Below are positions 458 to 21,696 of a stretch of 64,000 bases of DNA, one piece after another. Location: assembly GCA_036170915.1 (NCBI GenBank), contig JAVHQC010000017.1:1-64000 (forward strand), read 5' to 3'. Numbering within the stretch: the stretch's first letter is position 1; every line of letters starts with the position of its first letter. The notes beneath the pieces were generated by a model. It saw only the letters and a list, made by a program, of their open reading frames with translations. It was not told the DNA's origin and searched no databases. The stretch comes from Cyanobacteria bacterium auto_48_18. GTDB taxonomy: Bacteria; Cyanobacteriota; Vampirovibrionia; Obscuribacterales; Obscuribacteraceae. The position numbers and the translations under genes were made by a program.

Positions 458-1150
458 CTACTTAACCCCCAGGTAATCATATAAACCATTTAGCGAATGC
501 GGCTTTTCCTCTTTCTTGAAGTAATCTACCACGGGCGCAAGGGAGTAGCCCCATTGCTGGAAATTGTACCGTGGTGAGCAGGGCTCGACATTGCTTGGGT
601 TGAAGCGCGCGTCAATGAAAGTGAAAATCTCGGACTCGACGAGGCACCATCGCTTTGAGTCGGTCCTTCCAGCGGGATAACAAAGAAGCGGGCGGACAAT
701 GAATCCATCACAAGTTGCACCTCTCAACACAGCCTTAATGTCTACATCGGGCGCAAGAAGCGGTTCCAAATCTTTAGCAATTGACTTGATCTGCTGTTGA
801 TCAAATGCTCCCAACCATTGCAATATGTCTTGTCTAACCGATTCCTGTTCGCGAATTGGCTTGTTAAATTCTACGGGCTCCTCACTTTTTACCTCGCAAA
901 TAATGACATTCACAACGTCAGGTACAACGGCTAAGAAACTCGATGTTTCAGCCATTGGTAAGTCTTGCAAATGACGAGGAAAACGGACTGCAATGTAGTC
1001 GACATCCGTTCGGTTTTTTCCATACTCTTCGCTTTGAAGAATTAGACTTGTGGTTAAAAAACCATTCAGCCGCAAGTACAGATGTGCCAATGCTTCAGCT
1101 ACATTCGATTGCTTCCAGTTGATCGTTGCAGCCGGTTGAACCGCCGTCAC
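458..1150 (-). CDS. Hypothetical protein, PD-(D/E)XK nuclease-like
   Basis: AE..A..YL..NGF helix, TDVDYIAVR and ICEVKS motifs typical of the restriction-endonuclease-like fold. Confidence 0.55.
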   Translation of the reverse strand: MTAVQPAATINWKQSNVAEALAHLYLRLNGFLTTSLILQSEEYGKNRTDVDYIAVRFPRHLQDLPMAETSSFLAVVPDVVNVIICEVKSEEPVEFNKPIREQESVRQDILQWLGAFDQQQIKSIAKDLEPLLAPDVDIKAVLRGATCDGFIVRPLLCYPAGRTDSKRWCLVESEIFTFIDARFNPSNVEPCSPRYNFQQWGYSLAPVVDYFKKEEKPHSLNGLYDYLGVK

Positions 1151-1174
1151 ACCGAACCTCCTTTAATTACATCA

Positions 1175-2716
1175 TCAATGCACGGACAACGTGTGACGAG
1201 TGAATTTTCGTGGGCCTAAAACCCTTAGGCGAGTATCTTCCGTCAGCAATCCGTGCCGCTCGAGTATACTTACCTCGAACTCTTTCCCGCTCCAGCGAAC
1301 GCCTTTATCAATGGCTTTATCGAAAGGCTTCCAAAAGAACAAATTCAATAGTCGCCGCAGATCGCTGTCGCTCATACGCACGATTGTACCAACGTTGTTC
1401 TTACGGAAGTCGTATGAAGCGGCGAATGACACCTCGACGTCCGTCGTGTCTTCAACTGGCATGACGGACAGGTCACCCCTGATCAGTCGACAGATTCGAT
1501 CTACCGAAAACTGAGTCCACGTCTGCGATGGAATGTCGTACAAAAGCGAGACCTCCATGAAAATGTCGTCTTCATTTCGGACCGTCGCGATGTCCTTTTT
1601 AAGTTCAACATCGTCATGATCGCCAAAGTCAGTATCTTCAGGATCTTCCTCGTCAAGTTCGGTCTCAAAGAAGTATCGAGCAGTAGAACTCAAACCAGCC
1701 TTGATCAGCAGCGTAGTTTCATCGACCGATGCCATTTGAAAAATAACCGTTCTCGTTGGTTCGTCAACGTCCCAATCGATCATGTCCGCTCCATAAGGGA
1801 CGTCAAACAGGTTCGGGATATCTTTTTCAAACGCCTCGGACATTTCGTACCTGTAGTCGTTGTGCAACTGATAGCCAATCTGATCTGGATGGACTGTAAA
1901 TTCGAGCTGCCACTGCTGAACGACATCCGCGAGCAACGGCACTATAAGCCGATCTTCAAGTGAAGTCAAATCGGCAAAGAGCACTACCCTCTTATCGTCA
2001 ATACTTCTATTTTTTAAGTCTGCAATGAGATCAGGGTGCAACTCAATTTGCTTGACTGCGCTTGTCTCGCCCAGTGCCTTTTGCTTGGAACCGTCAGCGG
2101 CAAAATCCGCGATGTTGTTCGATAATAGAACAACCCTGAAGTCGCGCGCTTTAGCTTCATCGATTACTGTAAGCCACACCAGCTCATCACGGAAACCCTT
2201 TTCTTTGCAGTCGTTCGTATGCTTCTTAAATGGTTTTCTTTGTCGCAGAAGTTTTTCCAACACATCTGGAACTGATATGTCAGACCAGCCAACGAGTTCC
2301 AATTCGCAAGGAATTAGTTCGCGTAAGTACGCGTCAATACTTTCGTCGCTTACGTCACTCTCGGCGTTCAAACTTGATTCATCAATTGATTCCAAGACAT
2401 TTTGTAGAGGACCAAGAAACGCCGAAGGCAGATCGCGAAAGTTTCTTTTATGCTGCCGAAACGAATTCTGCAAATCATCGTACTGCTGCTTCAAGTGATA
2501 CTTGAATTCTTGACGCACCACAGGTGGAATTACAATGCGAATCGACCATTTCTTTGCATATGTCGCCAATCTCAACCAAGCCGTGTCGCCAAGCCTGCTA
2601 TGCCTCAGCAGCATGTTCGTATCGATAACGATCGCCAGGTCCGGGCCGCTTGGTTCAACGTACTCATTTGCGTTTTGTTCAGAAATCATTTGATCGCCGT
2701 TTTTTCGTTTGCTCAA
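1175..2716 (-). CDS. PIN-domain protein (DUF4935-like) with acidic C-terminal extension
   Basis: IVIDTNML, VIPPVVRQE, RKPF..KGFRDELVW and LLSNNIADF acidic PIN motifs. Confidence 0.75.
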   Translation of the reverse strand: MSKRKNGDQMISEQNANEYVEPSGPDLAIVIDTNMLLRHSRLGDTAWLRLATYAKKWSIRIVIPPVVRQEFKYHLKQQYDDLQNSFRQHKRNFRDLPSAFLGPLQNVLESIDESSLNAESDVSDESIDAYLRELIPCELELVGWSDISVPDVLEKLLRQRKPFKKHTNDCKEKGFRDELVWLTVIDEAKARDFRVVLLSNNIADFAADGSKQKALGETSAVKQIELHPDLIADLKNRSIDDKRVVLFADLTSLEDRLIVPLLADVVQQWQLEFTVHPDQIGYQLHNDYRYEMSEAFEKDIPNLFDVPYGADMIDWDVDEPTRTVIFQMASVDETTLLIKAGLSSTARYFFETELDEEDPEDTDFGDHDDVELKKDIATVRNEDDIFMEVSLLYDIPSQTWTQFSVDRICRLIRGDLSVMPVEDTTDVEVSFAASYDFRKNNVGTIVRMSDSDLRRLLNLFFWKPFDKAIDKGVRWSGKEFEVSILERHGLLTEDTRLRVLGPRKFTRHTLSVH

Positions 2717-2735
2717 TCATTCAACCGCGTCAGAC

Positions 2736-3644
2736 CTACTCGAAGAAAGCCTTCCGCTCGGCTTCTTCATGCAAATCATGTTTGATAATGTGGTGTCTAC
2801 TTGGTGTCGCCGAGTCCGAAAAGATCAGCGGCAGCTCATCGTAGTAGAGTTCTGCTATTAATGTGGAAAAATCTTTGTCGTAGCAGTCTTTCAGAATTTT
2901 CAGGTTAGTCGAGGGAAAGCTGTCTTTGAATTCCTTATTGTATTTTGGCTTAAAGTAGCGGATCAGCGAGGCTTCGTAAAGTGTGATACGTTCTGCTTCG
3001 TCAGTACCGAACAACTTGTCCAAGCCCATAGAAATTCGTTCGCCGTCCTCATCCTTTTCTTGTGCGCGCGGATTAAAAATCGTGAAGACGGTGTTGTCAG
3101 CTTCGACTTCCAGCAATAGAACATACAAAGCATGAGTGTCCTGGGGCTCTTGAATAGAGATCTTCTGAAGGGTCTCATGCTTCAGCAGCCGCTCAAGGGC
3201 GTTTCTTGAGCCGCCCGTGCCGTAAGCCTGACCAACATATAGGACCTTGAAGTTCAAGACGCCTCGCTGAGTTAGTTGACTCATTTCTTCGTTGTTATCT
3301 GGATAGACGGTTTGTCCCTGAGGACCGACCGGGAAGCAGAAATCGCCTTCCGTTCGTAAGGTACATTCCGGCGGAAACTCCCATCGCAACTCATGAGTTT
3401 TTCCAGCGACTTCATACTTAGTGAAAAGAGATGAGTCTTCTACCCGCGATCCAATCGTCTCGACTCTAGGCATCAGTCCAATCATGTAAACATGGCAGTT
3501 CGGAATGCGTGCGGCAAACTGCTCAAATTGCTCCGGTTCGTATATTGCCGAGGCGGGCATCAGAACGAAATCACTCGCGTGCATTCCGAGTGCGTGTTCC
3601 ACGTCAAAGAGTTTGTTATCGAACATGTTGCGAATACCAAACAA
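2736..3644 (-). CDS. Hypothetical protein, GIY-YIG-like nuclease
   Basis: HVYMIG ... VLYVGQA ... ERLLKH ... LYEASLIRYFKPKYN resembles the GIY-YIG motif set with a long insertion. Confidence 0.55.
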   Translation of the reverse strand: MFGIRNMFDNKLFDVEHALGMHASDFVLMPASAIYEPEQFEQFAARIPNCHVYMIGLMPRVETIGSRVEDSSLFTKYEVAGKTHELRWEFPPECTLRTEGDFCFPVGPQGQTVYPDNNEEMSQLTQRGVLNFKVLYVGQAYGTGGSRNALERLLKHETLQKISIQEPQDTHALYVLLLEVEADNTVFTIFNPRAQEKDEDGERISMGLDKLFGTDEAERITLYEASLIRYFKPKYNKEFKDSFPSTNLKILKDCYDKDFSTLIAELYYDELPLIFSDSATPSRHHIIKHDLHEEAERKAFFE

Positions 3645-3685: not shown

Positions 3686-3743
3686 ATTATAAGCCACTTC
3701 CGGGGGGTGTCATAGCGGTAGACAAAATGGGTTTTGTCTACCG
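3686..3743 (-). promoter_or_regulatory. Sigma70-like promoter with adjacent 12-bp inverted repeat for the three-gene operon
   Basis: Minus strand ATGACA (3713-3708)-N16-TATAAT (3691-3686). Perfect IR CGGTAGACAAAA-tggg-TTTTGTCTACCG at 3716-3743. Confidence 0.5.
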
Positions 3744-4038: not shown

Positions 4039-4134
4039 AGTGTACGGGGGCGGCGCCACCGTGCGTCAAGCGCGCAGCCGACCGTTTCTGATTCAGACAC
4101 ACACATCCGCTTGACCCACGGAGCCACCCCCGTG
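4039..4134 (-). promoter_or_regulatory. Putative Frpo-like single-stranded DNA promoter hairpin
   Basis: Imperfect IR 4044-4072/4108-4133 (23 Watson-Crick pairs). The minus strand carries TTGACG (4069-4064) inside the stem and TACACT (4044-4039) at its base. Confidence 0.6.
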
Positions 4135-4182
4135 CCCCGGTTTTTCGAGGCGAAATGCCCTCACTAACTGGAGGTAAACATC

Positions 4183-5010
4183 ATGGAACAATACGGTTTG
4201 GAACTAACCAATAATAGTAAGACATCGTGGGCATTCAGCTTGCCGCGCAGTGCGACTTGCATTGGCGCAACGGAACTATGTCGAAACGTATGTTACGGCA
4301 ACGGAGTGCGCTATCAAACGGCTGGACAAAAGGAAAAGCGGCATCGCAACTTGCGCACCGTCGAGCTGCTGCTGTCCAAAGGAGGACCAGAACTACTCGC
4401 GCAGAATCTTCTCGCGTTGATTGATCAAGCGAAGCCTGGGGATTGGCTGGCTGCCTCTGTCGCGGGAAGGAGGACGATGACGCCCTGGTCAATTAGGGTC
4501 CACGACGTGGGTGATTTTCATAAAATCTCTTACGTGAATGCATGGTGGATCGCGGCTATACAACGCCCTCAATGCTCTTTCTGGTTCTATACGAGAAGTT
4601 TTGTAGACAAGCACTTATTTGATGCCATGTCTGAACTCGCTTCCCTAGCCAATTGCCGAGGATGGCTGAGCATTGATTCCGAAAACTTCGAATCCGGTCT
4701 CCTTGCGTATTCAAAGCGGTCTGATGTTTGGGAACTGGCTCTGCTTCAGGAATCCGAAGATTCGCTCCACGAGAATTTATTGCCCGCACTTAATGCATGC
4801 ACGACTGTAAAGCAGGTCGTTTCTTTTCCTGTGCATCGCGGGCGATATCACGCTCCTCAGATCAAGCACAAGAGTCTATTCTCCTGTCCGGCAGTCTTGG
4901 GTTCGTACAAATTGGAACCAAACCCACGCAAACCGAGACCATGCCAGGCTTGCGCATTCTGCTTGCCTGCGCCGAGCACAACTACTTCTGTGGAGGTGCA
5001 CTATGAATAG
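4183..5010 (+). CDS. GP88-family (phage gene product 88-like) Cys-rich, radical-SAM-like protein
   Basis: FSLP...TCIGATELCRNVCY, RVHDVGDF, FWFYTRS, C-terminal CPA and CQACAFC; RBS GGAGGT upstream. Confidence 0.7.
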   Translation: MEQYGLELTNNSKTSWAFSLPRSATCIGATELCRNVCYGNGVRYQTAGQKEKRHRNLRTVELLLSKGGPELLAQNLLALIDQAKPGDWLAASVAGRRTMTPWSIRVHDVGDFHKISYVNAWWIAAIQRPQCSFWFYTRSFVDKHLFDAMSELASLANCRGWLSIDSENFESGLLAYSKRSDVWELALLQESEDSLHENLLPALNACTTVKQVVSFPVHRGRYHAPQIKHKSLFSCPAVLGSYKLEPNPRKPRPCQACAFCLPAPSTTTSVEVHYE

Positions 5011-5470
5011 CCGAACGCTCAAGAAGCAGCTGAAATACATCGTGCCGGAAATTCGTTTGGCTCTTATCAAAGAGCCGGGTGGTAAGCCGGTTGCAGTGGG
5101 CTGTCCCGAGGACCTAGAGAAATTCATCGAACCACTGAAGATACTCAGCGAAGAGCATTTCGTCGCTTACTTCTTAGATGCACGCAACAACGTGACGAAC
5201 GTGCAAGTGGTATCGCATGGCACAGCCTCTGCCAGTTTAGTCCATCCTCGTGAGGTTTTTAAAGGAGCGATACTGGCGAATGCGCATGCAATTATCGTCG
5301 CGCATAATCATCCAGCTGGATCGATGACTCCCAGCAGCGAGGATATCGAGACGACAGGGATTCTCATCAAGGCTGGTGACATTCTCGGCATGAAGGTCAT
5401 CGACCATCTCATCGTAAGCTCCAGCGGATTCTGCAGTCTGCGGGAAACGCACGGCTACCTCTGGGCGTGA
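5003..5470 (+). CDS. radC: RadC-like JAB/MPN domain protein
   Basis: EHF..LDARN, SLVHPREVFK, HNHPAG..PS.ED and DHLIV motifs; overlaps the upstream stop codon. Confidence 0.9.
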   Translation: MNSRTLKKQLKYIVPEIRLALIKEPGGKPVAVGCPEDLEKFIEPLKILSEEHFVAYFLDARNNVTNVQVVSHGTASASLVHPREVFKGAILANAHAIIVAHNHPAGSMTPSSEDIETTGILIKAGDILGMKVIDHLIVSSSGFCSLRETHGYLWA

Positions 5471-5484
5471 CAGGCGTAGGCGAT

Positions 5485-5527
5485 AGCCCGACGGGTCTTT
5501 CCTGGCGGGCTTTTGTCTATTTCTTTT
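5485..5527 (+). terminator. Intrinsic terminator after gp88-radC
   Basis: AGCCCG...CGGGCT stem followed by a T-rich tract. Confidence 0.6.
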
Positions 5528-5778
5528 GCAGCTGCGTGGCGTCGGCCGGCTGGTAAAGCTTTTCTGAAAATGTAGCGGAAATGCCAGGTATAACGCTTTA
5601 TACATGGCGAAAGCGCTACATCTTGCTGTTAGGTTCGAATTCGATAGTGCAAAGCAGCTGTTCTACCAAGCGGTGGAACAGCTGCTATAACATTTGTAGA
5701 AACGTTGGTGGCGCCCATCAGAAGTCGGCACGATAAAGCTTGTTGTGGAGACGTTAGCGGCGCCCAGGCGCCTGCATG

Positions 5779-6108
5779 TTATGACACCAGGGGTGGTGTT
5801 TTGCGTCTCACGGGAGGGAAGCGAAGAACTTTTTTGTCGCTCTTGCTTCCCTGATCTCGCGGTTCAGCAGCATTTCGCTTGCACCCGGTGCATAGCCGAA
5901 CCTCGTCGTCTGTCATTTTCGACAGGATAGTGAAAAGCTTGTCGGTGTGTGTCTTTGCCGAGAGGCAGTCGAATACCCAGTCCATACGGGTTAGGGGTAC
6001 AACACAAACCAGATTGTCGTCCGCATCAATGATTGCGCCGACCGTAGAATCAAATCCTTTTACGTTCAAAGGATTTCGTTTAGTGACCAATGTCAGTTTA
6101 ATTTCCAA
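5779..6108 (-). CDS. Hypothetical protein
   Basis: 109-aa ORF with GAGGA RBS-like sequence upstream of the TTG start; no recognisable motif. Confidence 0.4.
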   Translation of the reverse strand: MEIKLTLVTKRNPLNVKGFDSTVGAIIDADDNLVCVVPLTRMDWVFDCLSAKTHTDKLFTILSKMTDDEVRLCTGCKRNAAEPRDQGSKSDKKVLRFPPVRRKTPPLVS

Positions 6109-7691: not shown

Positions 7692-8006
7692 TTGAAACCG
7701 TCCCTTTACGGGCGTCCGTAGTTGATTTCTCTAGCTTACCTATCCTTTTCCCCAGGTCCGGCTCAGCGAAAAACCCCCTAGTCAGAAAATCGAAATCGCA
7801 CGGTACAATGAAATTATGCGGCGAGATTGATGGCGCTGCAGCCCATTAGGTCGACCAACACCATCAACATTCTTTTTGCGCTCAAATCATATTGATGGTT
7901 TGAGCTTTTTCGTTTTCAACAAAAACTTTCACTCTCGCAATGCGCGGCACGGCTTTTCATCAGTAGTGCCGCCGACTTGTTGCGAACACTTACAGAGGTA
8001 TATCAA

Positions 8007-8279
8007 ATGAACTCAAACAATAACATTCCGTATGGAAAGAGCACGACTCGTTACGAATTGCTCACACGCCGAGAAGCCGCTGCGTATCTAGGAGTAGCCG
8101 AACAGACGCTTGCTGTCTGGAAATGCACGGGCAGATATTCACTGCCTTGCATAAAGATTGGTCGACTCATCCGCTACAGAAAGTGCGATCTGGATGACTT
8201 CATCAACCAGCACATGCAAGCGACGGAACAACCGCGCTCTGCATTCGGCAATGTTTCCCCAGGCAACAATCGCCAATAG
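8007..8279 (+). CDS. Helix-turn-helix excisionase-like DNA-binding protein
   Basis: LLTRREAAAYLGVAEQTLAVW...KIGRLIRY...DLDDFI; ATG at 8007 with GAGG RBS. Confidence 0.85.
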   Translation: MNSNNNIPYGKSTTRYELLTRREAAAYLGVAEQTLAVWKCTGRYSLPCIKIGRLIRYRKCDLDDFINQHMQATEQPRSAFGNVSPGNNRQ

Positions 8280-8590: not shown

Positions 8591-8837
8591 CGCGCAGCCT
8601 GTGCAAATAAACATCAAATTCGAATGCACAGCCGCGCGGAGTAGGCAACGACGCGCAACCAAGACCGAGCGAAGCGAGCCTTTACCGGAGGTGGCATCAT
8701 CGGATGGTAAGGCAAGATAAAAGGTCTCTCTAGTTATTCCGTATGCCACCACTGGCGGGGCTCTTAAGAAGAGATGCAACGGGCTCGCTTCGCAAAATCC
8801 ACTGCAAATACTCGAAGATGTAGGCAGGTTGCGCGTC
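8591..8837. other. Putative origin of transfer (oriT) region
   Basis: Nested inverted repeats and minus-strand TATCTTG^C (8719-8712), similar to the RP4-family nic YATCCTG^Y, directly upstream of the RHH and relaxase genes. Confidence 0.65.
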
Positions 8838-8855
8838 TTAAGAACCGGAGGCAGT

Positions 8856-9266
8856 ATGGCCAAACCAAACAAAGACTTCAAGTCAAAAGTAGAAACTTAT
8901 CTCTCAGGATCCGATCACGATCGTTTTTTATCGGTGTGCAAACAAAGACACACCACCAAATCTGAAGTAGCTCGCGAAGCTATCCGATGGTATCTCGATA
9001 ATCTCGATGAACGCAAATTAGGAAAGCATAATTCCGAGCTATCAAAAAACATCAAGAGTATGACAGATCGAATATGCGGCATGCTCGCACGCCAGGGCGC
9101 GCAGACCGGGACACTCTACGAACTAGCCTGGCAGAACCACGCAGAAAACAAAATGCAAGATCGCTTCATCGCCGCTGCCAATCTCGTCAAAGGCAAAATG
9201 CGCAAGCGCCTGGAGGACGATGAAAAGGCAATCGCCGAACGAATGAGTAAGGTAGTCGAAAAATGA
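8856..9266 (+). CDS. Ribbon-helix-helix relaxosome accessory protein (MobC-like)
   Basis: KVETYL...TKSEVAREAIRWYL RHH pattern; GGAGG RBS; overlaps the relaxase start. Confidence 0.7.
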   Translation: MAKPNKDFKSKVETYLSGSDHDRFLSVCKQRHTTKSEVAREAIRWYLDNLDERKLGKHNSELSKNIKSMTDRICGMLARQGAQTGTLYELAWQNHAENKMQDRFIAAANLVKGKMRKRLEDDEKAIAERMSKVVEK

Positions 9267-10549
9267 TGATCGTTCGCCACAGCTACATCTCAGTTAAGGC
9301 GAAGCAGCGAGGCGGAGTCAGTTTGAAAGCCGCAAGAGGATTGGCGATCGGCACGGCACTCGGACACGTCAAATACATCCAGCATCGACCCGGCAAAGAT
9401 CTAGAAAAAGGCGGTCGAGATGCCTATACCGATGCGGAGGATTCGGTAGATGCAAAAGAACTGCGGGACATAATCCGTGAGTACGAAGGAAGGGGAGTTG
9501 TCGTCCACAAGTTGACTCTATCCCCAGAGGTTAGCCCGAACGATCCGAAGGAATTTACGAGGGAGGTGATGAAAGAACTCGGATCGGAGAAGGGTCTGGA
9601 TCTCCAGTGGTGGGCAGTGACTCACGATAACACCGACAATCGCCACGTTCATGTTGTGGTTCTACCAAAGGATAAAGACGGGCGGCTCGTGCGGTTCGAC
9701 AAGAACGATTACAACAAGCTCAAAGAGTTTGGCGATAGATATCTTGAACGAACTCAATACTCAGACTGCCGAATGGCAGAGCTAGTAAGACAAGAGAAAC
9801 ACCGTCAACGCTCAACCGAACGCCAACAACAGTTAGAAAAAGAGCGGCAAGAACGAATTAGAAATGGCGAAGAGCTTCCCTGGCTGCACAAGAAAATCGT
9901 TAGAGAACAGCTCGAACCATATCAGCAATGGAACAAGGACCAGCCGCGCGATCCAAAGGATTCATTCGAATATTTAGGACAGCGTTTTTCAAAAGAGGAT
10001 GGTTACGAACGGTTGGCAGGTCTCCGTCGCCACCTGCATGAGAACACAAACAAATCGCTCAGGCTACCAAAGGAGGATTACAAACGCCTGGCGAGTTGGA
10101 TCGAACAGAAAGACCGAGCCAGATTCTCCGGTGAAATAGATCGACAGCTAGCAAGCGCAAAGGCATCTCAAACAGCAAGAGATGAAGCGCGAAATTCGCC
10201 GGCGGCAAATCGATATGTTTCTCCGCTACAGCAAGAAATGATGAGAAATCCAATCATGGGACTCTTCCTGACAGAGGCAGCCATCGCCGCAGAACTAGTC
10301 CGATGGATTCCGCTTACCGATCAACGAGACCGCCTCAAAGAGAATCGGGACGATCTCGAAGATGCGAAACGAGACGTTGAAGCCAAACAACGAACTCGCG
10401 GCAATCCAGACCAGAAGGCTGCCGACGAGGAGATCATCGAGAAGATTGATGGCGCAATCGACGACAACAAAAACACACGCAAAGATGCGCGAAAAGAGCG
10501 AGAAATCGAAGAGAGAAAACGCGATCGCGATCTTGACTTTATGGAGTAA
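9263..10549 (+). CDS. HUH relaxase, MOB(P)/VirD2-like
   Basis: Motif I HVKYIQHRPG, motif II HKLTLSP, motif III HDNTDNRHVHVVV; charged coiled-coil C-terminus. Confidence 0.85.
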   Translation: MMIVRHSYISVKAKQRGGVSLKAARGLAIGTALGHVKYIQHRPGKDLEKGGRDAYTDAEDSVDAKELRDIIREYEGRGVVVHKLTLSPEVSPNDPKEFTREVMKELGSEKGLDLQWWAVTHDNTDNRHVHVVVLPKDKDGRLVRFDKNDYNKLKEFGDRYLERTQYSDCRMAELVRQEKHRQRSTERQQQLEKERQERIRNGEELPWLHKKIVREQLEPYQQWNKDQPRDPKDSFEYLGQRFSKEDGYERLAGLRRHLHENTNKSLRLPKEDYKRLASWIEQKDRARFSGEIDRQLASAKASQTARDEARNSPAANRYVSPLQQEMMRNPIMGLFLTEAAIAAELVRWIPLTDQRDRLKENRDDLEDAKRDVEAKQRTRGNPDQKAADEEIIEKIDGAIDDNKNTRKDARKEREIEERKRDRDLDFME

Positions 10550-10555: not shown

Positions 10556-12649
10556 ATGCAAACAACAGCACAAGACATGGGCATCGTAGACTCTACGCCA
10601 AAAGAATTACCGGTACTCGCAGTTAATGTTCTGGATCGGCTTGGATACCAGGTTTCCAGAGCGAGCAAACAACTCGATCAAATACTCGCCGTAGAAAGAC
10701 TAGACGAGCAGGTCGGAAGAGATTGGTGGAGACACGAGTATAGAGTCGTTCTCCGGTGGTCAGAGACATCAAATGGAGGCTCACTGGTCGACGTTGAAAT
10801 CTCAGAGAAGAAAGGAGGTGGTACACACGAAGACTGCCGAAGTCGATGCAAACAAGTTATTGCAAAGCTGCAAGAAGACGCGCAACGCGCAAAGCGTGTT
10901 TCCGCAACCAAAGCGAAGTCCACCATCCATGGTGGCGCAACATGGGGTGATGAAAACGAGATTCGCAAAGCCGGATACATCACGCATAAGCCTGAAGCCA
11001 CTCGATTAATCATCGGTAAGACACAGAACAACGAGTACATCTCGGTACCGGAGCTGGTGACAAATGCGCACGCGATTGTCTGCGGACGAACCGGCGTAGG
11101 CAAGTCTAGAGGCTTCTTCATCCCGAACCTTATGGAAAGACTCGGAACCAACATGATCGTCACTGAAGCCACGCCCGGATACGAACCAGGCGAACTGTAC
11201 ACACTCACTTCGGGTTGGAGGAAACAAGCTGGTCACCGAATTTATTCGTTCAACCCCGCCGATATGTCCTCCACCCGAATCAATCCGGTCGACCGAGTAA
11301 GAATGGCGCCGCAACTCGAAAAAGCCAAGGAAGCCGAAAAGCTCGCCGACTTGATCATCATGAACGGCAGCGGCGAGGAACAACGCGTCGACCCAACATG
11401 GGACCGCTCTGAAAAACAGCTCCTCGTGTCACTGATACTGCACGCAGCAGCAACTGATCCAGAGATGGGACATATCGGCGCAATCAGATGGCTGCTTCTT
11501 TCTGGAATCAATCGAGTCCGCGAAACGATGGCAAAGAGTAAGTCCGAGCTTGCGCAGATGGAGTTCGAAGGTTGGCTTGGATCGACATCCGAGAACTTCA
11601 GATTCGGTGTGCTCTCGGGGCTGATGACGAAACTCAATCCTTGGATAACTGACCAGCTCGTAGCGCTAACGGAGAAGACAGACATCGACTTTGAAGAGCT
11701 AAGAAATCAGTTGTTCACCTTCTACATCGCGGTGCCGAGCCGCTCGCGCGATAGCAAGTTGATCGGCTCCCTCCTGGTGAACTTCCTCCTCGATTACTTG
11801 CTCGACACTAAGGCCACTATGAAGTATCCGACAGCGATGTTCCTCGATGAATTCACCAACTTCGGAAAGATCGCAAACATCGCCAACGTACTGTCAATCG
11901 TCAGAAAAGCGAAGATAAGTCTCGTGCTTGGATTTCAAAATTACTTCCAGCTCGAACGAGTCTACTCACAGAAGGAGGCGCAAATAATCTTCGATCAACC
12001 TGCAACGCAGATTTACTTCAGGCAGAAGAACTTCCGCGAAGCCCGCGCCCTGAGCGAAGCACTCGGAAGAACAACAATCGAAGAAGTCACCGTAAATGAT
12101 ACCGGTCGAGTGCACGAATTCATTCAAGGTCGAGCACTCGCCACACCGGATGAATTGATTAATCTGACCGGCGAAGTTATCGCATTCACGAACGACACCT
12201 GGCCGCTCAAGCTCCCGCTCACCGCGCCATATGCATACGAACATGCATTGGCATATCCACCGCCGGAACGCCCAGATCATGAAATTACCGAGCACGTTCG
12301 CCGACGCGGCAGAACCGCGGAGCAAAAGGAGTCGCAGCAACATCAGCAGCAAGAACCAACAAACAACACCACCGAAAATCCATCAGGCGGAAACACCAGA
12401 AACCGCAGAAACAAAGACCGCAACAACAGAAGTCGTGACGGTGGAAATTTTGATAGCAGAAACCGCAATGACGAAAATCGCGACAACCGAAATCGACGCA
12501 AGCGAGATTCCGCAAGCCGCGATCGCGATAATCGCAACTTCAATTCAAGCGCGCGAGAAACTCATGAAGAGCGCTCGCACGAAGACCAATCCTCATATTC
12601 ACAACCACTAGACAACTCACCGGAGGTCGACGACGTATGGCCATCATAG
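10556..12649 (+). CDS. Type IV coupling protein, VirD4/TraG/TraD family
   Basis: HGGATW, Walker A GRTGVGKS..FIPNL, FNP..S.RINP, Walker B FLDEFTNFG, Q...QL..VY, A..LS..LG..T. Confidence 0.9.
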   Translation: MQTTAQDMGIVDSTPKELPVLAVNVLDRLGYQVSRASKQLDQILAVERLDEQVGRDWWRHEYRVVLRWSETSNGGSLVDVEISEKKGGGTHEDCRSRCKQVIAKLQEDAQRAKRVSATKAKSTIHGGATWGDENEIRKAGYITHKPEATRLIIGKTQNNEYISVPELVTNAHAIVCGRTGVGKSRGFFIPNLMERLGTNMIVTEATPGYEPGELYTLTSGWRKQAGHRIYSFNPADMSSTRINPVDRVRMAPQLEKAKEAEKLADLIIMNGSGEEQRVDPTWDRSEKQLLVSLILHAAATDPEMGHIGAIRWLLLSGINRVRETMAKSKSELAQMEFEGWLGSTSENFRFGVLSGLMTKLNPWITDQLVALTEKTDIDFEELRNQLFTFYIAVPSRSRDSKLIGSLLVNFLLDYLLDTKATMKYPTAMFLDEFTNFGKIANIANVLSIVRKAKISLVLGFQNYFQLERVYSQKEAQIIFDQPATQIYFRQKNFREARALSEALGRTTIEEVTVNDTGRVHEFIQGRALATPDELINLTGEVIAFTNDTWPLKLPLTAPYAYEHALAYPPPERPDHEITEHVRRRGRTAEQKESQQHQQQEPTNNTTENPSGGNTRNRRNKDRNNRSRDGGNFDSRNRNDENRDNRNRRKRDSASRDRDNRNFNSSARETHEERSHEDQSSYSQPLDNSPEVDDVWPS

Positions 12650-13203: not shown

Positions 13204-13415
13204 ATATCGAACTCGAAGCCCTTAGACTAGTAGAGACATCTACCGGACCAATCAACTTGAAACTTTTGAAGAGAGCATTCTTACGTTGAAGGTCACGCAG
13301 ACGAGAGTCCGAACTGGTGCTCAGTGAGGGTTGGGCTGCCTGAAACTTGACGTTCGGTCAGTGGAATAGGCATCGTGGCACGATTTCATTAAAGATTGGG
13401 GTTTCGAGTAAGTTT

Positions 13416-15083
13416 ATGTTTTCCGAAAAAAACTCATACGAGCCGGACGCTCTTCGGGATGCATACAAGGTTCTGCTTGGAACACTTGGTTTCCAGTCGA
13501 TCGAGAGCCTTAATGAGGAGACCGCAGACTGGAAAGTTGATACCTTTGACAGCTCTTATCTAGTGAAAGTCCTAACGGATCACAACATACGTTCGCTATA
13601 TCAAATCGTGCGAAATTTGCATTACAGGCAACTTGAGCTGGGATTAAAAGGGAGCATTATTCTTTATCATCGAATAATCCCTAAACCAAAGTCAGAGTAT
13701 TTTGTTGGAAATTTTCCTTTGAAAATTCTGGATGCGTGTGCGATAGGTGCACATTTGGAAATTCTGCTTGCTTATTCGCAAAATTTAGAAGACGAAGGAG
13801 ATTTTGTGTCCAGTGGACATTACGCATTGGAAGGAGACGATCTTCATAGATCTGCAACCATTTTTGTAGACTATTTGCCAGAGGGCCACTTGCGCTTCTC
13901 TGGGAATGCTACGTACGGAAATCTTCGCGGCTTTGGTCCCAACATGGGATTTTTTGAGTTTGTAGCTGATGATCTGAAAGATCGAAATTCGAGATTATTC
14001 ATCTTGGACGAGGACTGGAAAATTCCAGAACAGTCAGCAGCAAGCTATGGAAATACGGTAATCTTTGAATCTACGGCTTATTCCGATGAACCGTATCGAG
14101 CGATATTCACATTCAAGAAATTCGGCTTAGTGGTGGAGGAACGCAATTTTCAATATGCACCATTCGGACACAATGTGTCCTTGAGTGGATTTTACGAAAA
14201 GGCTATTTTTCCTAGCGCTACGCGAGAATACTCTGCTGTTTCCGATGACGAGATTTTTAGCCTATCTTGGAACTTCAAAGGAGTCTTTCGATCAATCCAG
14301 GTGGGCGCATTAGAAATCAGATTATGGCTGAACCAGTTTGCGCCAGATGAGCGACGACCGATGTTCTATCTTCTTCAGCGCGTTCGATTCTTCAACAACT
14401 TAATGGTGCGAGAAGCCGTTGAATGGTTGCATTTAAACACTCTGAAATCACTTGAGATTCAAAGAAATGACACTGAGAGCGAAAAGAGTTTTCTAATTAC
14501 GGCTTTTGGAAATCCAGCAAAGAGTGGGTCAACACTTGCAAGAATCTATCGATCAACCAATCGATTAGTCCCGGCAAACGTTGCACACCTCGATGATATC
14601 AAAGAACAACTTGAGCAGAATACTGAGATCAAACATGTTGTTTGCGTTGAGGATGTAATTGGTTCGGGAGAGGACATGCTCAATTTTCTTAGAGCACTTG
14701 ATCGAAAGTTTGGACTGCTCTTAGCCGAACGCAATATTTCGGTCATCATTCAATCCATTTGCGCGCTCACTGACGGTGTGAAGAAAATTGAGAGTGAAGC
14801 AAACAATCTCAAATACAAATTTACGCTGAACTATTATGAGCTGATGGACAAATGCTTCTCCCAAAAACCTGAGTATTGCAACATCGATGAAGATTGGGAT
14901 GAGATCATGAGGATAGCTGAAAAATACGGACGGCGGCTTCGGCCAGACAAACCCCTAGGTTATGGCGATAGCCAAATGCTCGCTGTCTTTCACGACAATT
15001 GTCCGAACAACACACTACCGATTTTGTGGGCGCAGTCGAAAGAAATTGAGTTTTATTGGCAGCCCTTATTTCCTCGGGAATGA
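13416..15083 (+). CDS. Multidomain protein with C-terminal phosphoribosyltransferase-like (PRTase-CE type) domain
   Basis: GNPAKSG, VVCVEDVIGSG (PRPP-loop-like), PLGYGDSQ...FHDNCPNNTLPILW; start taken at ATG 13416. Confidence 0.7.
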   Translation: MFSEKNSYEPDALRDAYKVLLGTLGFQSIESLNEETADWKVDTFDSSYLVKVLTDHNIRSLYQIVRNLHYRQLELGLKGSIILYHRIIPKPKSEYFVGNFPLKILDACAIGAHLEILLAYSQNLEDEGDFVSSGHYALEGDDLHRSATIFVDYLPEGHLRFSGNATYGNLRGFGPNMGFFEFVADDLKDRNSRLFILDEDWKIPEQSAASYGNTVIFESTAYSDEPYRAIFTFKKFGLVVEERNFQYAPFGHNVSLSGFYEKAIFPSATREYSAVSDDEIFSLSWNFKGVFRSIQVGALEIRLWLNQFAPDERRPMFYLLQRVRFFNNLMVREAVEWLHLNTLKSLEIQRNDTESEKSFLITAFGNPAKSGSTLARIYRSTNRLVPANVAHLDDIKEQLEQNTEIKHVVCVEDVIGSGEDMLNFLRALDRKFGLLLAERNISVIIQSICALTDGVKKIESEANNLKYKFTLNYYELMDKCFSQKPEYCNIDEDWDEIMRIAEKYGRRLRPDKPLGYGDSQMLAVFHDNCPNNTLPILWAQSKEIEFYWQPLFPRE

Positions 15084-15125
15084 TCAACCTGATACTACAA
15101 ACGGAAATCCAATTCCATCGGATCT

Positions 15126-18100
15126 TTAGCTTACCTTGTGATACTTTGAATCTCTATTGTCAAACGCCGGTCGTGTGCCCTCAAGGATATCCACGACCTT
15201 TTTGTTGATCAATGGTTCCTCAAGTGAGCCTGAACTGTACTCAATATTGATATCGTTTGCCTTCTCCAAGTGAGCGTGTATCACCTGCTCTGCGTCGCAG
15301 ACAACGGCCAGGTTAGGATTATGCGTCACAATTATGACTTGTCGCCGTTGCTTTGCTTCGGTTATTGCCGGCACCAGCGTTTCGAAGACCGTCTGGTTAT
15401 CTAAGTTCTCTTCGGGTTGATCGATGACCAATGGGATGTCTGACTGATCAATTAGCAGATAAAAAACAAGGAGAAGTAGCCCCCTTTCTCCTGGAGATAA
15501 CTGCTCTATGTCCTTATTGCTCAGGCGAAGCTTATACTGCGGAATCAAGTATTCCAATCCGTAAAGAAAATCGTATAGCTGTTCTAACGAAACACCTTTC
15601 TTCAATTGGGTTGCCGGATCCGTATTGAATGCACCATCATCGGTCAAGTTATTGAACATACGAGTCAGAAAATCTATGACGTCGTCGCGATCGTTCCAGT
15701 CGAACTCTTGAAGAATCTCCTGTAGCCTGCGTGGTCCGCCTTCGCCGTAGTAGAACCCACCCGTCCCTCGGGAAATGAAGTCAAAAAATTGCCGCTCGAA
15801 GTCTTCCATTTCAAGCGAGACCGCAAATGAGAGCCCTATTTTGTCCTTAAGGAGTGGATGCTGTTCGGCAAATTCGCGAACTGGACTGTAATACTGTTCG
15901 TAAACTTTCAAGATATCTTCCAGCTTCTCGTGTATTCCAAATACAATCTTTTCTCTTTCCAATCGAAGTGCACTAATCATTTGAGGCACGGTGTCGAGCG
16001 CGGTTAACTGTGCTTGCAAATACCCGAGCGAACCATCCAGCTCTTCGGAGCCAATCAAATTATTGCGAGCTTCAGTCCATAGCCGCTTCTGCTCCAAATA
16101 CTCTTGGTACAGCAAGACTGGCTCAGAAAGCTTTTCTTCCAGCTCGCCGATCTGGCTGTCAATCTGGGCAAGCTGCTTAGGAAATCCGCCATCTAATTCT
16201 GTAGAAAGAAGTCCATCCAGATGCGCTCGGTTCAATTTCAGCTGCTCGCGTACGGTTAAGATCTGCGTATCGTCGAGCCGGACTTGAAATACTGATGCGG
16301 CATCAACACCAAGTTCTTCAAGATCTTCGGACGAATCTCTTTCAACTTCATCCACCATTGTCCGCAAGTTTGCAAGACGCTCAACAAGCCGATCGCAAAT
16401 AGCTAGTTTCCTCACGACCTGATGAAGCTGCTCTTCCGCTTCCTCAATTTTGCTTACAACCTGCTGGCGCTGTAGTCGTTGTTGTTCCAACGCTGCCACA
16501 GTAATCTTGTCGACATTGTCAGCTGACGGTTCCTTGATTTCCGCCGGAACATTTTTCTCATGTACTTGCAATTCTTCTTTCTTCTGGTTTAACTGCGCTT
16601 CAATTCTCTTGCGGTGCTCGGGCAACAGTCTCTGTTCATTTTGAACAATGTCCACGTTTACCTTCGATAACTTAGCTCTATCAACATTTATTGACTGTTG
16701 AATCTGTTCAGTTTTAAAACCAATGAGACCATCAAGTGAGCCTTGCCCAAGTTTTTCCGCCGATGGAACGTGCGAGTAGATTACTGACTTAAGCTCGCCC
16801 TCAAAGCTTGAAGTCCCTTTCGGATCATTGCAGATTTCTTCTAAGAAATTCTGTGGAACATACTTGACCAGTTCGACGGCTGATGGATCCGGATTTTTGT
16901 CCATCTCGGCGCGCGTTGAAACTCCGCTGAGCCAAATTAACGTGGTTTCAAAATGGACAGACAAATTGTCTTTGCCCTTCCTGCGAAACTTGTGCTCATT
17001 TAGAAAGGAGAAGCACCTTGATGCTTGCGTGTTGCCCGCAAGCGCAATGCAGTCTGCGAGAGCGCTTTTCCCGCTTCCTTTGTTTCCTATGATGGCAACC
17101 AACGCTGCATTCAGCGGCAGCCGTGCGGCAAACCATGTTTCCTTCAGCGTCGACAGCGACTTCTTTTCTATCACAATTTCTTGAATGTACTTCGTTGCGT
17201 TGTTCTTTACTCTCGCTACAGGTGGCGGGACAGACCCGATGAAAACTCTTTGATCAAATTCCTTAAGAGCATGCTGCAACCCTTTAAATGTCGGATCAGC
17301 TTTCATCCACGTAAAACAGTTACCGATTCGATCTTTCTGTCCAGAGTTCTTGAGATGATGGGCATCACTGCAATCAACAAGATGATCGTTAACTTGCGCA
17401 TTGGTCAGAACTTTCCGGTGCCTTGAATAATCCTTATGGTTATCCAAAGCACTGAATACAAGATCGACGGAGTTGATCAGGTCCTTTTTCGTTGCAGCAG
17501 CCTGAGCCGTCCAAGTCATTGCAGCCCACTCAGCCTTTCCCACCGCAGTAGCGAATTTCCCTTCGAAATATGGACTTTCCAAAACCTCTTCAACTACAGT
17601 CGGTGCAACACATAGATTATTGAAGCCGGTTATCAGTGCCGAAGGAAAGGTGGCTTGCACTCCCGGCGGACTCGAATCTATTACCTTTTGTCCAAAGTCG
17701 GTAAGACTTTGCCGGTCAACGACACCGTTCCATTGCCCATGGGCTATACCTGGAGCCAATTGATATTTAGGTCTAAGGGCCGCAAGAAACTGTGCATCAA
17801 TCTGGTCAGCAGTGAGCTCATCGGAGAAAATTACATGGTAGTTAATCCTGCTGAGATCACCATCGGCACCGGCAAATGTTGACAGTCGCAGTTCAATAAC
17901 GGGCAGTACACAGGCAATATTCTTGAGGCGACCGTTCTGTCGCGCCGCAACCACCTTCCGGTAACCGTCCAGAAAGAGGTAATCGTTTATGCCTATCACC
18001 GCGAATTCCGGAGGCAGAGATTCAAGATCTGCGAGGAATTGCTCCCACTTATCGCCGCCCCCTGCTCCATAAGTTGTGTTGACCAGAGAATCAGGAGTAT

Positions 18101-18242
18101 GAACATGTAGGTCCCATCTTCTCCATTCCGATCCACGAGGGTATTTGGCATTGGTCAAAGTCTGCGCGCTCCCGTAAACAAAGCAATTGTCGTATTTCTT
18201 TCGATCTCGGCTAAGTCCCAACTGAACTCTTGATGGCACCAA
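15126..18242 (-). CDS. PHP-domain plus SMC/ABC-type ATPase (TrlF-family/Ppl-like)
   Basis: GSEWRRWDLHVHTP, GINDY, SDAH (PHP); GNKGSGKS, long coiled coil, LSPGERG, VIDQPEENLDN, IVTHNPN (ABC ATPase). Confidence 0.85.
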   Translation of the reverse strand: MVPSRVQLGLSRDRKKYDNCFVYGSAQTLTNAKYPRGSEWRRWDLHVHTPDSLVNTTYGAGGGDKWEQFLADLESLPPEFAVIGINDYLFLDGYRKVVAARQNGRLKNIACVLPVIELRLSTFAGADGDLSRINYHVIFSDELTADQIDAQFLAALRPKYQLAPGIAHGQWNGVVDRQSLTDFGQKVIDSSPPGVQATFPSALITGFNNLCVAPTVVEEVLESPYFEGKFATAVGKAEWAAMTWTAQAAATKKDLINSVDLVFSALDNHKDYSRHRKVLTNAQVNDHLVDCSDAHHLKNSGQKDRIGNCFTWMKADPTFKGLQHALKEFDQRVFIGSVPPPVARVKNNATKYIQEIVIEKKSLSTLKETWFAARLPLNAALVAIIGNKGSGKSALADCIALAGNTQASRCFSFLNEHKFRRKGKDNLSVHFETTLIWLSGVSTRAEMDKNPDPSAVELVKYVPQNFLEEICNDPKGTSSFEGELKSVIYSHVPSAEKLGQGSLDGLIGFKTEQIQQSINVDRAKLSKVNVDIVQNEQRLLPEHRKRIEAQLNQKKEELQVHEKNVPAEIKEPSADNVDKITVAALEQQRLQRQQVVSKIEEAEEQLHQVVRKLAICDRLVERLANLRTMVDEVERDSSEDLEELGVDAASVFQVRLDDTQILTVREQLKLNRAHLDGLLSTELDGGFPKQLAQIDSQIGELEEKLSEPVLLYQEYLEQKRLWTEARNNLIGSEELDGSLGYLQAQLTALDTVPQMISALRLEREKIVFGIHEKLEDILKVYEQYYSPVREFAEQHPLLKDKIGLSFAVSLEMEDFERQFFDFISRGTGGFYYGEGGPRRLQEILQEFDWNDRDDVIDFLTRMFNNLTDDGAFNTDPATQLKKGVSLEQLYDFLYGLEYLIPQYKLRLSNKDIEQLSPGERGLLLLVFYLLIDQSDIPLVIDQPEENLDNQTVFETLVPAITEAKQRRQVIIVTHNPNLAVVCDAEQVIHAHLEKANDINIEYSSGSLEEPLINKKVVDILEGTRPAFDNRDSKYHKVS

Positions 18243-18251
18243 CGAAGTTGT

Positions 18252-18857
18252 CTAAGGCTGCTTTTGCGCCGTCAAAATCCGCTCGACCAGCTTGTACACT
18301 GTGGTGCCAAAGGTGCGTGGCCAATCTACGCACGGTGGACTGTCTCGTGTCTTGGCCCGCTCTATCGCAGCGACAATGCGATCGTCAGTAAATTTGCGAA
18401 CGTCGATCCCTTTTGAGTAGTTGGGCAAATGCCTTTCCAACTTTTCTGAACATTGACGAGAACCACCGATGGTTGTGTCCTCGAAGTGCAGAAGCAACCA
18501 GTACTCGAACTTCGGGTTGCTCAAAGCAAGTCCATACTGCGCGCTTTCTTGAGACCACGCAAACAAAGGAATTAGCTGTTCTTCGGTCCAATCGTCCTTG
18601 TCCACGACGAGCCAGGCTTCATCAGTCTTTCGCAATGCAGTTCTTCTAATTCTTGCTTTGAGCCGCTCCAATACTTGTGGCGGAGAGGTCGCTTCTTCAC
18701 CCGGAATACATTCGACTCGTACTACTGCATTTCCTGCGTTGAGCATCGCGAAATACTGAGGCTCTGTTTTAGAACCTTCTACTGCGACAAGAAACAGCTT
18801 GCGATATCTGCGCTCACCGAGAGGGCGGCTAAATGATCGTCTCTTCTTCAATGCCAT
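18252..18857 (-). CDS. RloB-family (TOPRIM-like) protein
   Basis: VEGSKTEPQYF, WLVVDKD, LSNPKFEYWLLLHF, TTVYKLVE. Confidence 0.9.
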   Translation of the reverse strand: MALKKRRSFSRPLGERRYRKLFLVAVEGSKTEPQYFAMLNAGNAVVRVECIPGEEATSPPQVLERLKARIRRTALRKTDEAWLVVDKDDWTEEQLIPLFAWSQESAQYGLALSNPKFEYWLLLHFEDTTIGGSRQCSEKLERHLPNYSKGIDVRKFTDDRIVAAIERAKTRDSPPCVDWPRTFGTTVYKLVERILTAQKQP

Positions 18858-20194
18858 TAGACACCCTGCTTACACTCGTTCTCGTGCCAAGAATGCACGT
18901 TACGACCGTCAAAGAAAACGCGAGGAATTCCGCCCAAGCGCCCTTGTAAGTAGCTCTTGCGAATGTCCTTGTCATAACGAACATCCTTGAAGTCGCTGAA
19001 CGATGTTAGGCTAGAGCCGCCCTTCTCGCTCCGCTCTGTTATCCACATTTCGTCCCGCCGCAGCAAATCCTGATCCATGAGCAACACATCGTGAGTGGTG
19101 AACAACAATTGCGCCCTGGTTTCGGATTTGCAACTCGACAGATATCCTTCCAGCAGATGACGAGTGAGCAAGGTGTGCAAGCTGCGATCGAGCTCATCGA
19201 TAACATAGACCTTTTGCGATTTCTCGACACAAAGATCCAGAAAAACCGGCAACAGATCTATTACGCGCCTCGATCCATCAGACTCAAACTCCATGCCGAA
19301 CTTGACGCTTTCACCGACACTGTTGGAGTGAAACGTCACTAGCTTTTTTGCAAACAGTTCACCATCCTGGCGCGACAAGGCAATTGGATCCCGGAGCATG
19401 AGCAATGCTACGTCTCCATCCTTCAAATTCTCTTCAATATCTGCAATGAATTCCTTCGGCAATCGCAAGTCGTCGAGACTTATTGCTTCGAATTCGAGAT
19501 TCGTAATTCCAGTATCTAAATGCGCTAGCGCATCTCTCATCGCACAGAGCGTCGGGCTGCCATCCTCTAGAAATCGCTCAAATCGGCCGAAGCGAGAATC
19601 TGGTGCCACCAGCTGAAGGTGATTCTCGAACCAGTCGTACACAGCTCGAAAACGCTCTACCTTTTGAGAAATTGAGTTCGTCAAAAAGAGTTGATTGTCT
19701 CTAGTTCCGCGAAAGACGAATTGGAGAGCTTGATCTTTTTCGAGACTCTTATCGAAAACGATCCTGGAGCCAATCCGCTCGTACAGCACTTTCTCGCTCG
19801 ATGCCAGTACTTCGACAAGCTTTTCTTCTAAGACAGCTTTCCTCGTTACGGCAAAACTGAATGCATAAATCTTCTCCTCAACAAGAACTTCGAGAGAGAA
19901 CCGCGCTGGCTCCGTTGCGCTTGTTGGATCAAGCAAAAAATTTTCTACTGGAATTGCCGAACTTGGATGAGTGCCGCGTACGACCAAGTTCTTGATAAAG
20001 CTCAACGCCTTGAACAGATTTGTCTTGCCCGACGCATTGCCGCCATACACAACAGCCAACGGAAGGATTCTGGTTCTATATTTGTCGACTGCAGGAATTC
20101 TTTCCCCGTGCTGCTTTTCCTTACTAGCAACCAAAGACAACGAAGCTTCCGTTTGGAAGGACATCCAATTCTGCAAAGTGAAGCTTATTAACAT
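18857..20194 (-). CDS. RloA-like AAA_21/ABC ATPase
   Basis: Starts MLISFTLQNWMSF; YGGNASGKTN, ESDGSRR, IDELDRSLH, QLLFTTHD, SYLQGRLGGIP; TAATG coupling to rloB. Confidence 0.9.
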   Translation of the reverse strand: MLISFTLQNWMSFQTEASLSLVASKEKQHGERIPAVDKYRTRILPLAVVYGGNASGKTNLFKALSFIKNLVVRGTHPSSAIPVENFLLDPTSATEPARFSLEVLVEEKIYAFSFAVTRKAVLEEKLVEVLASSEKVLYERIGSRIVFDKSLEKDQALQFVFRGTRDNQLFLTNSISQKVERFRAVYDWFENHLQLVAPDSRFGRFERFLEDGSPTLCAMRDALAHLDTGITNLEFEAISLDDLRLPKEFIADIEENLKDGDVALLMLRDPIALSRQDGELFAKKLVTFHSNSVGESVKFGMEFESDGSRRVIDLLPVFLDLCVEKSQKVYVIDELDRSLHTLLTRHLLEGYLSSCKSETRAQLLFTTHDVLLMDQDLLRRDEMWITERSEKGGSSLTSFSDFKDVRYDKDIRKSYLQGRLGGIPRVFFDGRNVHSWHENECKQGV

Positions 20195-21680: not shown

Positions 21681-21696
21681 CCTTCAAGCTTTTAAT

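Follow-up and report, generated by a model that had tools for sequence, protein, structure and literature searches.

The genes gp88 and radC, which overlap in a 64,000-nt stretch of DNA from an uncultured member of Ca. Obscuribacterales (the window), are very probably part of a leading-region operon: they lie on the first-transferred side of a mobile element, behind a hairpin that resembles a single-strand promoter, and GP88 is predicted to adopt a radical-SAM fold. This leading-region reading is well supported; the reading of GP88 and RadC as a functional pair is not.

Position of gp88 and radC in an integrated element

Annotation of the window revealed the following features, in order of position.

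1-55: terminal part of a probable repeated insertion element, truncating ssb at the contig edge
53-295, plus strand: 3' part of ssb (profile of related SSBs, hmmsearch, E 5e-37, profile positions 51-129 of 143; family name via Pfam)
458-3644, minus strand: three cargo genes between ssb and the gp88 hairpin, one a PIN_12 nuclease and two without assignment
4039-4133, minus strand: Frpo-like single-strand promoter candidate; 25-pair stem, variable loop, about 95 nt
4039-4044, minus strand: -10 box, read on the transferred strand, 3' arm of the hairpin
4064-4069, minus strand: -35 box, read on the transferred strand, 3' arm of the hairpin
4170-4174, plus strand: ribosome-binding site GGAGG of gp88, from the sequence
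4183-5010, plus strand: gp88, 275 aa (Pfam GP88, PF17338, E 1.3e-22; 81.2 bits against a cut-off of 24.4, profile 21-227 of 230)
5003-5470, plus strand: radC, 155 aa (Pfam RadC, PF04002, E 2.5e-37; 127.9 bits against a cut-off of 22.1)
5476-5520, plus strand: probable intrinsic terminator after radC, a hairpin with a T-rich tail (-26.3 kcal/mol)
5779-6108, minus strand: convergent gene of 109 aa, with 69-98% identity across 8 related loci (closest clade)
7977-8279, plus strand: HTH_17 (excisionase-like) backbone gene (Pfam)
8711-8719, minus strand: nick-site-like motif of MOBP type, TATCTTG^C
8829-9266, plus strand: mobC-like accessory gene directly before the relaxase, conserved, with no family over cut-off
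9263-10549, plus strand: MobA/VirD2-like (MOBP) relaxase (PF03432, E 3e-9; MobP models below cut-off)
10556-12649, plus strand: VirD4-like coupling protein (PF02534, E 9e-50)
21691-21746, plus strand: right attachment site, within the 3' portion of the tRNA-Met gene (21697-21773, minus strand)

The first 21.7 kb of the window form the right part of an element integrated in tRNA-Met. A 56-nt att repeat, 98% identical, recurs beside a tyrosine integrase on a second contig (C18:13848-13793), and between this integrase and the end of C18 lie type I restriction-modification genes and the backbone genes that precede ssb in relatives. From the repeat and the gene order of relatives, and not from contig overlap, we infer that C18 is joined to the window contig (C17). 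The element combines an integrase and att repeats with a relaxase, an oriT motif and a coupling protein, and no mating-channel gene was seen among the ORFs scanned (window 1-21.7 kb and part of the C18 ORFs); it is therefore probably an integrative mobilizable element, of about 36 kb. Its left arm (L091, G000:C18, 2480-13643) carries the integrase, a methylase-specificity fusion, type I hsdM/S/R and HTH, TPR and DnaJ-domain genes, and defence-like cargo fills the right end (13347-21237): a PRTase-CE protein, a TrlF-family PHP/ATPase, an AbiLi/AbiLii-like pair and one gene without assignment. Two tRNA arrays of 9 genes each were also found in this genome (G000:C33, 15652-16458 and 164122-165603).

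The direction of transfer was read from the motif at 8711-8719 by means of YATCYTG^Y, which we take to be the consensus of MOBP nick sites. It lies on the minus-equivalent strand in 23 of the 24 loci with mobC and relaxase and on the other strand in 1/24, shuffles giving a mean of 1.8/24. From this site, transfer in the 5'-3' direction proceeds toward radC and gp88, both of which have the transferred strand as template. The original prediction had placed the genes on the first-transferred side, pointing toward oriT, and the nick motif supports this. A set of 41 intact gp88 loci was then compared, consisting of the window and 40 loci chosen from the best near-full matches, with many kin among them. 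Wherever the relaxase is in view (21 loci) it is downstream and co-oriented; ssb is co-oriented in 36/41, and radC is present in 23/41 and directly adjacent in 8.

Within the locus, the 8-nt overlap ascribed to gp88 and radC was recovered (shared positions 5003-5010). The terminator ascribed to them folds at about 5476-5520, but it is absent from the terminator-scan output and is therefore rated as plausible only. Both genes are under purifying selection, with dN/dS of about 0.08-0.13 for gp88 and 0.03-0.07 for radC (each against three relatives). The ssb remnant, also predicted, is real and on the same strand, but it lies 3.9 kb away, beyond three opposite-strand cargo genes. This 458-3644 block is absent from close relatives, in which ssb ends 0.3-0.5 kb before gp88 (8 loci); the interval from ssb to the hairpin looks like a cargo hotspot. 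The 5' end of ssb has probably been replaced by the end of a repeated insertion element present at roughly four times the depth: ssb DNA of relatives matches only from 55-57, and a 2887-nt contig that ends on 1-55 has a depth of 52.6 versus 13.7 (one run, possibly of the source sample). The 109-aa gene at 5779-6108 has no match in Pfam, PHROG, NCBIfam or PADLOC. Short inverted repeats, perfect or near-perfect, occur in intergenic DNA at 5653-5686 and 3716-3743.

A candidate single-strand promoter upstream of gp88

A hairpin overlooked in the original prediction precedes gp88 at 4039-4133, and its design makes it likely to work as a single-strand promoter. Folding as DNA gives a long imperfect stem (z -3.35), and the plus strand folds as RNA too (z -3.7). 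Comparison of 32 copies shows a covarying stem and a freely varying loop: 92.5% of cells are paired and 8 pairs show double changes (0/500 shuffles for both cells and score), with slid controls at 38-50% pairing. Read on the minus strand, wobble pairs are G-T in 64 cases and C-A in 3, which indicates that it is the transferred strand on which the structure is conserved. In 32/32 copies TTGACG is followed on the 3' arm, after 19 nt, by TAnnnT; these copies are a training set of kindred loci that was chosen by a pattern demanding TTGAC and not TAnnnT. A -35-like box is present on the coding strand, but a -10 box follows it in 0/32 at spacers of 16-19. Among 45 copies outside the model, 44 retain A2 and T6 of the -10 box (counted from the table) and 24 the full TAnnnT, with 0 in shifted controls; a narrow -35 pattern matched only 6 of these 45 and was replaced by a position-based test. 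The 19-nt spacer is longer than usual, and would span about 16 bp in the folded stem owing to a 4x1 loop.

The placement of the hairpin is also consistent with this role. It stands directly before gp88 in 35 of the 41 intact loci and on the template strand in 31/31 cases with the relaxase in view; in 70 of 77 copies an opposite-strand gene starts within about 70 nt downstream, and only 1 copy has a mapped gene on its other side. Elsewhere it precedes radC, an RHH gene or a sigma-factor gene. One copy was found in this genome, and the hairpin occurs in 66/107 genomes of the order. Rfam returned no match to 4039-4133, and a search of 36 phage-type gp88 loci with the hairpin model gave one weak match (E 0.016). 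Short-loop variants were seen in tandem at L068 (1217-1247, 1559-1589 and 2224-2254) and at L120:8256-8286, in both cases ahead of genes without assignment.

Comparison with known systems places the hairpin close to Frpo: it is a stem-loop on the transferred strand of a leading region, it lies before co-oriented genes, and it presents -35 and -10 boxes in folded form, a pair that is absent from the coding strand. The Frpo/ssi leading-region islands of F and ColIb-P9, as described in the accessible text of PMC11541004 and PMC9849209, likewise combine genes beside oriT that are read from the transferred strand, ssb, and an upstream stem-loop with both boxes. The present locus differs in its Ca. 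Obscuribacterales host, its short (about 95 nt) hairpin with a 19-nt spacer and variable loop, and an operon devoid of known anti-CRISPR, Ard, Psi or methylase genes. Promoter activity of the Frpo type is demonstrated by experiment, within the accessible text of these two papers, only for F and ColIb-type plasmids (PMC9849209, PMC11541004). In the searchable supplements of the leading-region survey (PMC11541004), GP88 is absent and RadC marginal.

RadC and its linkage to gp88

The RadC of the window is a short JAB-only form, with PF04002 and an E...HxH-x7-S-x2-D metal site. This site had been described as intact, correctly so (E51, H101, H103, S111 and D114), and it aligns with that of PDB 2qlc. 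Matching to full-length chromosomal RadC covered profile positions 91-209 and 95-215 only, below cut-off, and a second radC lies on C35 of the same genome. According to the accessible text of PMC5512222, the RadC JAB domain is predicted to process nucleic acids or nucleotides. The RadC JAB proteins of conjugative elements (PMC5512222; Tn4371-like ICEs, PMC3414803), so far as these sources are accessible, are similarly short, JAB-only and borne on mobile elements, the ICE radC containing a RIT insertion site; here, in contrast to the RadC JAB of PMC5512222, radC is a stand-alone gene and not part of a polyvalent protein, and in both cases function is predicted. Neither RadC nor GP88 gave a match in PADLOC, which covers the defence side.

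The original prediction treated GP88 and RadC as one coupled module, and this claim fails on linkage. Of 59 near-full gp88 copies, 10 abut radC, 18 more have radC within 10 kb and 31 have none in view. Conversely, 12 of 83 mobile-type radC genes (our own cut at E 1.8e-50, with linkage taken from genome coordinates) abut gp88, and 46/83 are without gp88 within 10 kb, a figure that contig ends inflate. Twenty of these 46 loci were fetched; at least 11 have mobC and relaxase downstream, and in 11/20 the hairpin lies directly before radC. Sister elements without gp88 show the order hairpin-radC, and radC occurs in 0/70 phage gp88 loci. Prediction of a GP88-RadC complex gave no support and carries no weight as evidence. 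An obligate pair was thus rejected on the linkage counts, which instead mark ssb and radC as constant early genes and gp88 as an optional one.

GP88 has a predicted radical-SAM fold

Two cysteine motifs had been reported in GP88, and both are present: Cx6Cx3C (C26, C33, C37) and CxxCxxC (C254, C257, C260), the latter accompanied by C235. Cx6Cx3C is kept in 117/120 close and 91/110 distant homologues, and CxxCxxC in 119/120 and 100/110. The structural model of GP88 (pLDDT 88) has six parallel strands with a cysteine loop after strand 1, and predicted models thus show the partial (beta/alpha)6 barrel of the radical-SAM fold. QueE is the best fold match (Z 9.8, rmsd 3.7, 187 aligned), followed by spore photoproduct lyase (Z 8.9, rmsd 3.5, 192 aligned) and MoaA (8.6); the top 14 structural rows for GP88, and the top 26 for a distant relative, are radical-SAM enzymes. 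The radical-SAM likeness claimed for GP88 is therefore borne out at the level of predicted fold. Since the Z values are moderate and tied, they identify a fold and not a reaction: at 8-10 they stand modestly above the tool background of 7-8, with about 10% identity to solved structures. Foldseek against the PDB found nothing at E <= 0.001, profile searches of the PDB with both GP88 alignments found nothing significant, and the ESM Atlas search returned GP88 clusters only.

The canonical motif Cx3Cx2C is replaced by Cx6Cx3C in GP88, which we accordingly describe as having a radical-SAM fold and not as a proven member of the superfamily. The GP88 profile scores one DUF5131 protein above cut-off (29 bits), but the GP88 of the window has no DUF5131 (PF07505) match at E 0.05 and no Cx6Cx2C, and a profile comparison with DUF5131 is weak (3.5%); DUF5131 is a related family only. 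In the accessible text of PMC9477430, DUF5131 is listed as a radical-SAM subgroup (Megacluster 5-2, Cx6Cx2C) beside spore photoproduct lyase, and the cysteine-motif variants given there all retain a second gap of two. With the radical-SAM superfamily, in which DUF5131 is the nearest listed subgroup and QueE the nearest solved fold, GP88 shares a six-stranded partial barrel whose first strand is followed by three cysteines; it differs in having neither Cx3Cx2C nor Cx6Cx2C, in an extra C-terminal CP...CxxCxxC, and in the lack of a methyltransferase-like or Que partner.

Invariant or near-invariant positions in distant members comprise K13, C26, C33, C37, Y38, R105, H107, G110 and D111, together with Y136-R138, S163, D165, C235, C254, C257 and C260; the conserved basic residues suggest an anionic substrate. 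Conserved HDxGD, YTRS and SxD lie at the ends of strands 2, 3 and 4, where they may be counterparts of the GGE, TNG and ribose motifs of SAM binding. The most likely ligand of Cx6Cx3C is a [4Fe-4S] cluster that binds SAM, and C235/C254/C257/C260 would hold a second cluster or a zinc. GP88 probably binds Fe-S and cleaves SAM, and the chances that its substrate is DNA or a nucleotide are evenly balanced. The accessible literature contains no functional account of GP88, although the fold assignment may already stand in Pfam or InterPro text.

Distribution of gp88, phage relatives and RIT insertions

The first search returned 278 gp88 homologues, and the names of homologues place the host in Ca. 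Obscuribacterales. Matches occur in 56/107 genomes of the order and in 11 of the 401 genomes of a phylum sample, where 6 are over cut-off and one of those is DUF5131; bacterial context outside the order rests on this 401-genome sample and on phage collections. A plasmid collection gave one weak Streptomyces match. The family (PF17338 / phrog_1392) comprises 1313 clusters at 50% identity, and is named after gene 88 of mycobacteriophages L5 and D29. In L5, gene 88 comes second after the early lytic promoter Pleft (accessible text of PMC5712189), and in D29 it serves as an infection marker (bioRxiv 2025.11.21.689395 and 2021.10.21.465286, accessible parts). In phages gp88 lies within about 6 kb of a genome end in all 60 listed of 392 records, and in 38 of the 40 listed in a second listing; Streptomyces phages carry it twice, one copy at 4-6 kb, which fits their terminal repeats. 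The GP88 of the window resembles that of phages in its score over cut-off, its cysteine motifs and its early or terminal position, and differs in its mobilizable host element and a clade-specific insertion before strand 2.

The neighbours of gp88 in 68 IMG/VR loci belonging to one subclade are mostly family-less genes, often with an AAA/DUF3150/DUF1257 block nearby, and element-derived profiles detected no radC, ssb or relaxase in these loci. No queuosine-pathway enzyme, methylase or glycosylase was found in phage gp88 loci (145/206 neighbour clusters scanned) or among the recurring neighbours of gp88 in the elements. A role for GP88 in a base-modification pathway was rejected, no Que, methylase or glycosylase partner having been found among these 145/206 clusters or the recurring element neighbours. 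Fused forms were absent from 8000 longer candidates, which is weak evidence. DUF932 genes lie near GP88 in three phage-like loci (L126:9024-10028, L128:10798-11856 and L173:6952-8043), and a few elements (L033, L066, L075; e.g. L066:6610-9591) carry a ThiF and diadenylate-cyclase (DAC) block near gp88.

Many copies of gp88 are interrupted. By our own count, 32 of 117 matches in the order break at residues 104-119, and in 10 of 20 loci fetched for the purpose a RIT junction falls at the G110-D111 codons, bounded by shared inverted repeats (L031, L032, L033, L034, L037, L041, L043, L048, L049 and L050; e.g. L032:4096 and 16428). Tyrosine recombinase trios are found inside the insertions wherever the interior is in view. 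Recurrent RIT insertion at G110-D111 marks gp88 as a landing site that is both conserved and dispensable; the accessible text of PMC3414803 describes a RIT inserted into the radC gene of a Tn4371-like ICE. Next to the junction, one end of the RIT in gp88 bears a short palindrome and a 7-mer that resembles the target in inverted orientation, and the cargo of some of these elements includes an RND efflux pump and a two-component system. At L037:5750-10563 a RIT is flanked by two inverted gp88 3' halves, their junction 7-mers swapped, as if both ends had recombined with different gp88 copies.

Proposed role and alternatives

Our best explanation, which we hold at about even confidence, is that the locus is an establishment operon expressed early, and that GP88, an optional member of it, is a stand-alone Fe-S enzyme acting on DNA or nucleotides and aiding survival against defences. 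The minus strand, nicked at 8711-8719, would enter the recipient 5' first, and about 4.6 kb in it would fold into the hairpin, the 3' arm supplying the -35 and -10 boxes. With the 5' arm of the folded stem as its template, host RNA polymerase could proceed into gp88 and so transcribe gp88-radC from single-stranded DNA; it would cease once the second strand is made, as the sequence design suggests. In the first minutes after entry GP88 would help the invading DNA to outlast host defences, most likely by applying a 5'-deoxyadenosyl radical to the incoming DNA, a nucleotide signal or SAM itself. RadC is a separate, more constant member of the early set, a predicted nuclease or nucleotide-processing JAB enzyme.

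Early expression in phages and an entry-timed, promoter-like hairpin make gp88 a good candidate for a new counter-defence enzyme. Judged by position, the chance that its benefit is counter-defence falls just short of even. Single early genes that disarm SAM-dependent or DNA-scanning defences are known in the phage T3 SAM lyase and T7 Ocr; the analogy to GP88 is functional only, as the folds are unrelated, and bulk SAM depletion is a less likely mode for GP88 because a radical-SAM enzyme is slow and reductant-dependent. We propose only tentatively that GP88 is a stand-alone radical-SAM counter-defence family common to first-expressed phage regions (L5/D29 gene 88, terminal regions of Streptomyces phages) and to leading regions of mobilizable elements with single-strand promoters, and it is equally speculative that host immunity is disarmed by its radical chemistry, applied to the incoming DNA or to a cofactor or signal of nucleotide type. 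No account of radical chemistry in anti-defence proteins was found in the literature searched. Several points count against the best explanation: the cysteine spacing is non-canonical, gp88 is missing from many sister elements and often broken by insertion, the hairpin boxes could also drive leftward transcription of double-stranded DNA, not all genes of leading regions are anti-defence genes, and the AAA/DUF3150/DUF1257 neighbours in large uncultured phages are not known anti-defence genes.

The same early operon could instead supply GP88 as a repair or housekeeping establishment enzyme that reverses a lesion in incoming single-stranded DNA, much like spore photoproduct lyase with its own lesion, or clears a damaged nucleotide and has no defence target. 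The travel of gp88 with ssb and radC fits this, as does spore photoproduct lyase among the tied top folds (Z 8.9, rmsd 3.5 over 192 residues); QueE, MoaA, SuiB and others nevertheless tie within 1 Z, so that the fold singles out no repair enzyme, and a glycosylase neighbour is absent from the scanned gp88 loci. We regard a repair role as unlikely on balance. The stand-alone, early nature of GP88 and its lack of pathway partners would also suit an enzyme that modifies or inhibits a host protein (cf. glycyl-radical activators, RimO), or a non-catalytic Fe-S protein, either of which would reprogram the recipient. PFL activating enzyme and peptide-modifying enzymes are indeed among the top folds, but hosts as distant as Melainabacteria and those of Actinobacteria phages would better fit a universal small-molecule or DNA substrate, and either role seems to us quite improbable.

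The remaining alternatives concern the hairpin and the pair. If the hairpin were a priming site, an mRNA leader or a leftward double-strand promoter, gp88 would be a passenger without special timing. The stable RNA fold of the plus strand (z -3.7) and the 19-nt spacer would agree with this, and Frpo itself reportedly primes replication too, going by the title of Masai and Arai 1997 listed in PMC9849209. The wobble pairs (64 vs 3) favour the minus strand, however, and with 70/77 copies within about 70 nt before an opposite-strand gene start, and 1 with a gene on the other side, we give such a hairpin only a slim chance. Least credible to us is the original view of GP88 and RadC as one two-component system: the 8-nt overlap here, adjacency in the closest clade (the first 7/7 loci) and radC within 10 kb of 28/59 gp88 copies speak for it, but only 10/59 copies are adjacent, 46/83 mobile-type radC genes are without gp88 within 10 kb (contig ends inflating this number), complete sister elements do without gp88, and 0/70 phage loci have radC.

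Implications

The layout of this leading region is of a known kind, and what lends itself to testing is the chemistry of GP88. Its family is widespread among viruses, has no function described in the accessible papers and takes in gene 88 of L5 and D29, both model phages; a predicted radical-SAM fold combined with early-entry placement in two unrelated kinds of mobile DNA calls for direct experiment on one enzyme. The hairpin, if it acts as its design suggests, would extend Frpo-like promoters to an uncultured lineage of Melainabacteria and may serve there as a marker for other early genes.
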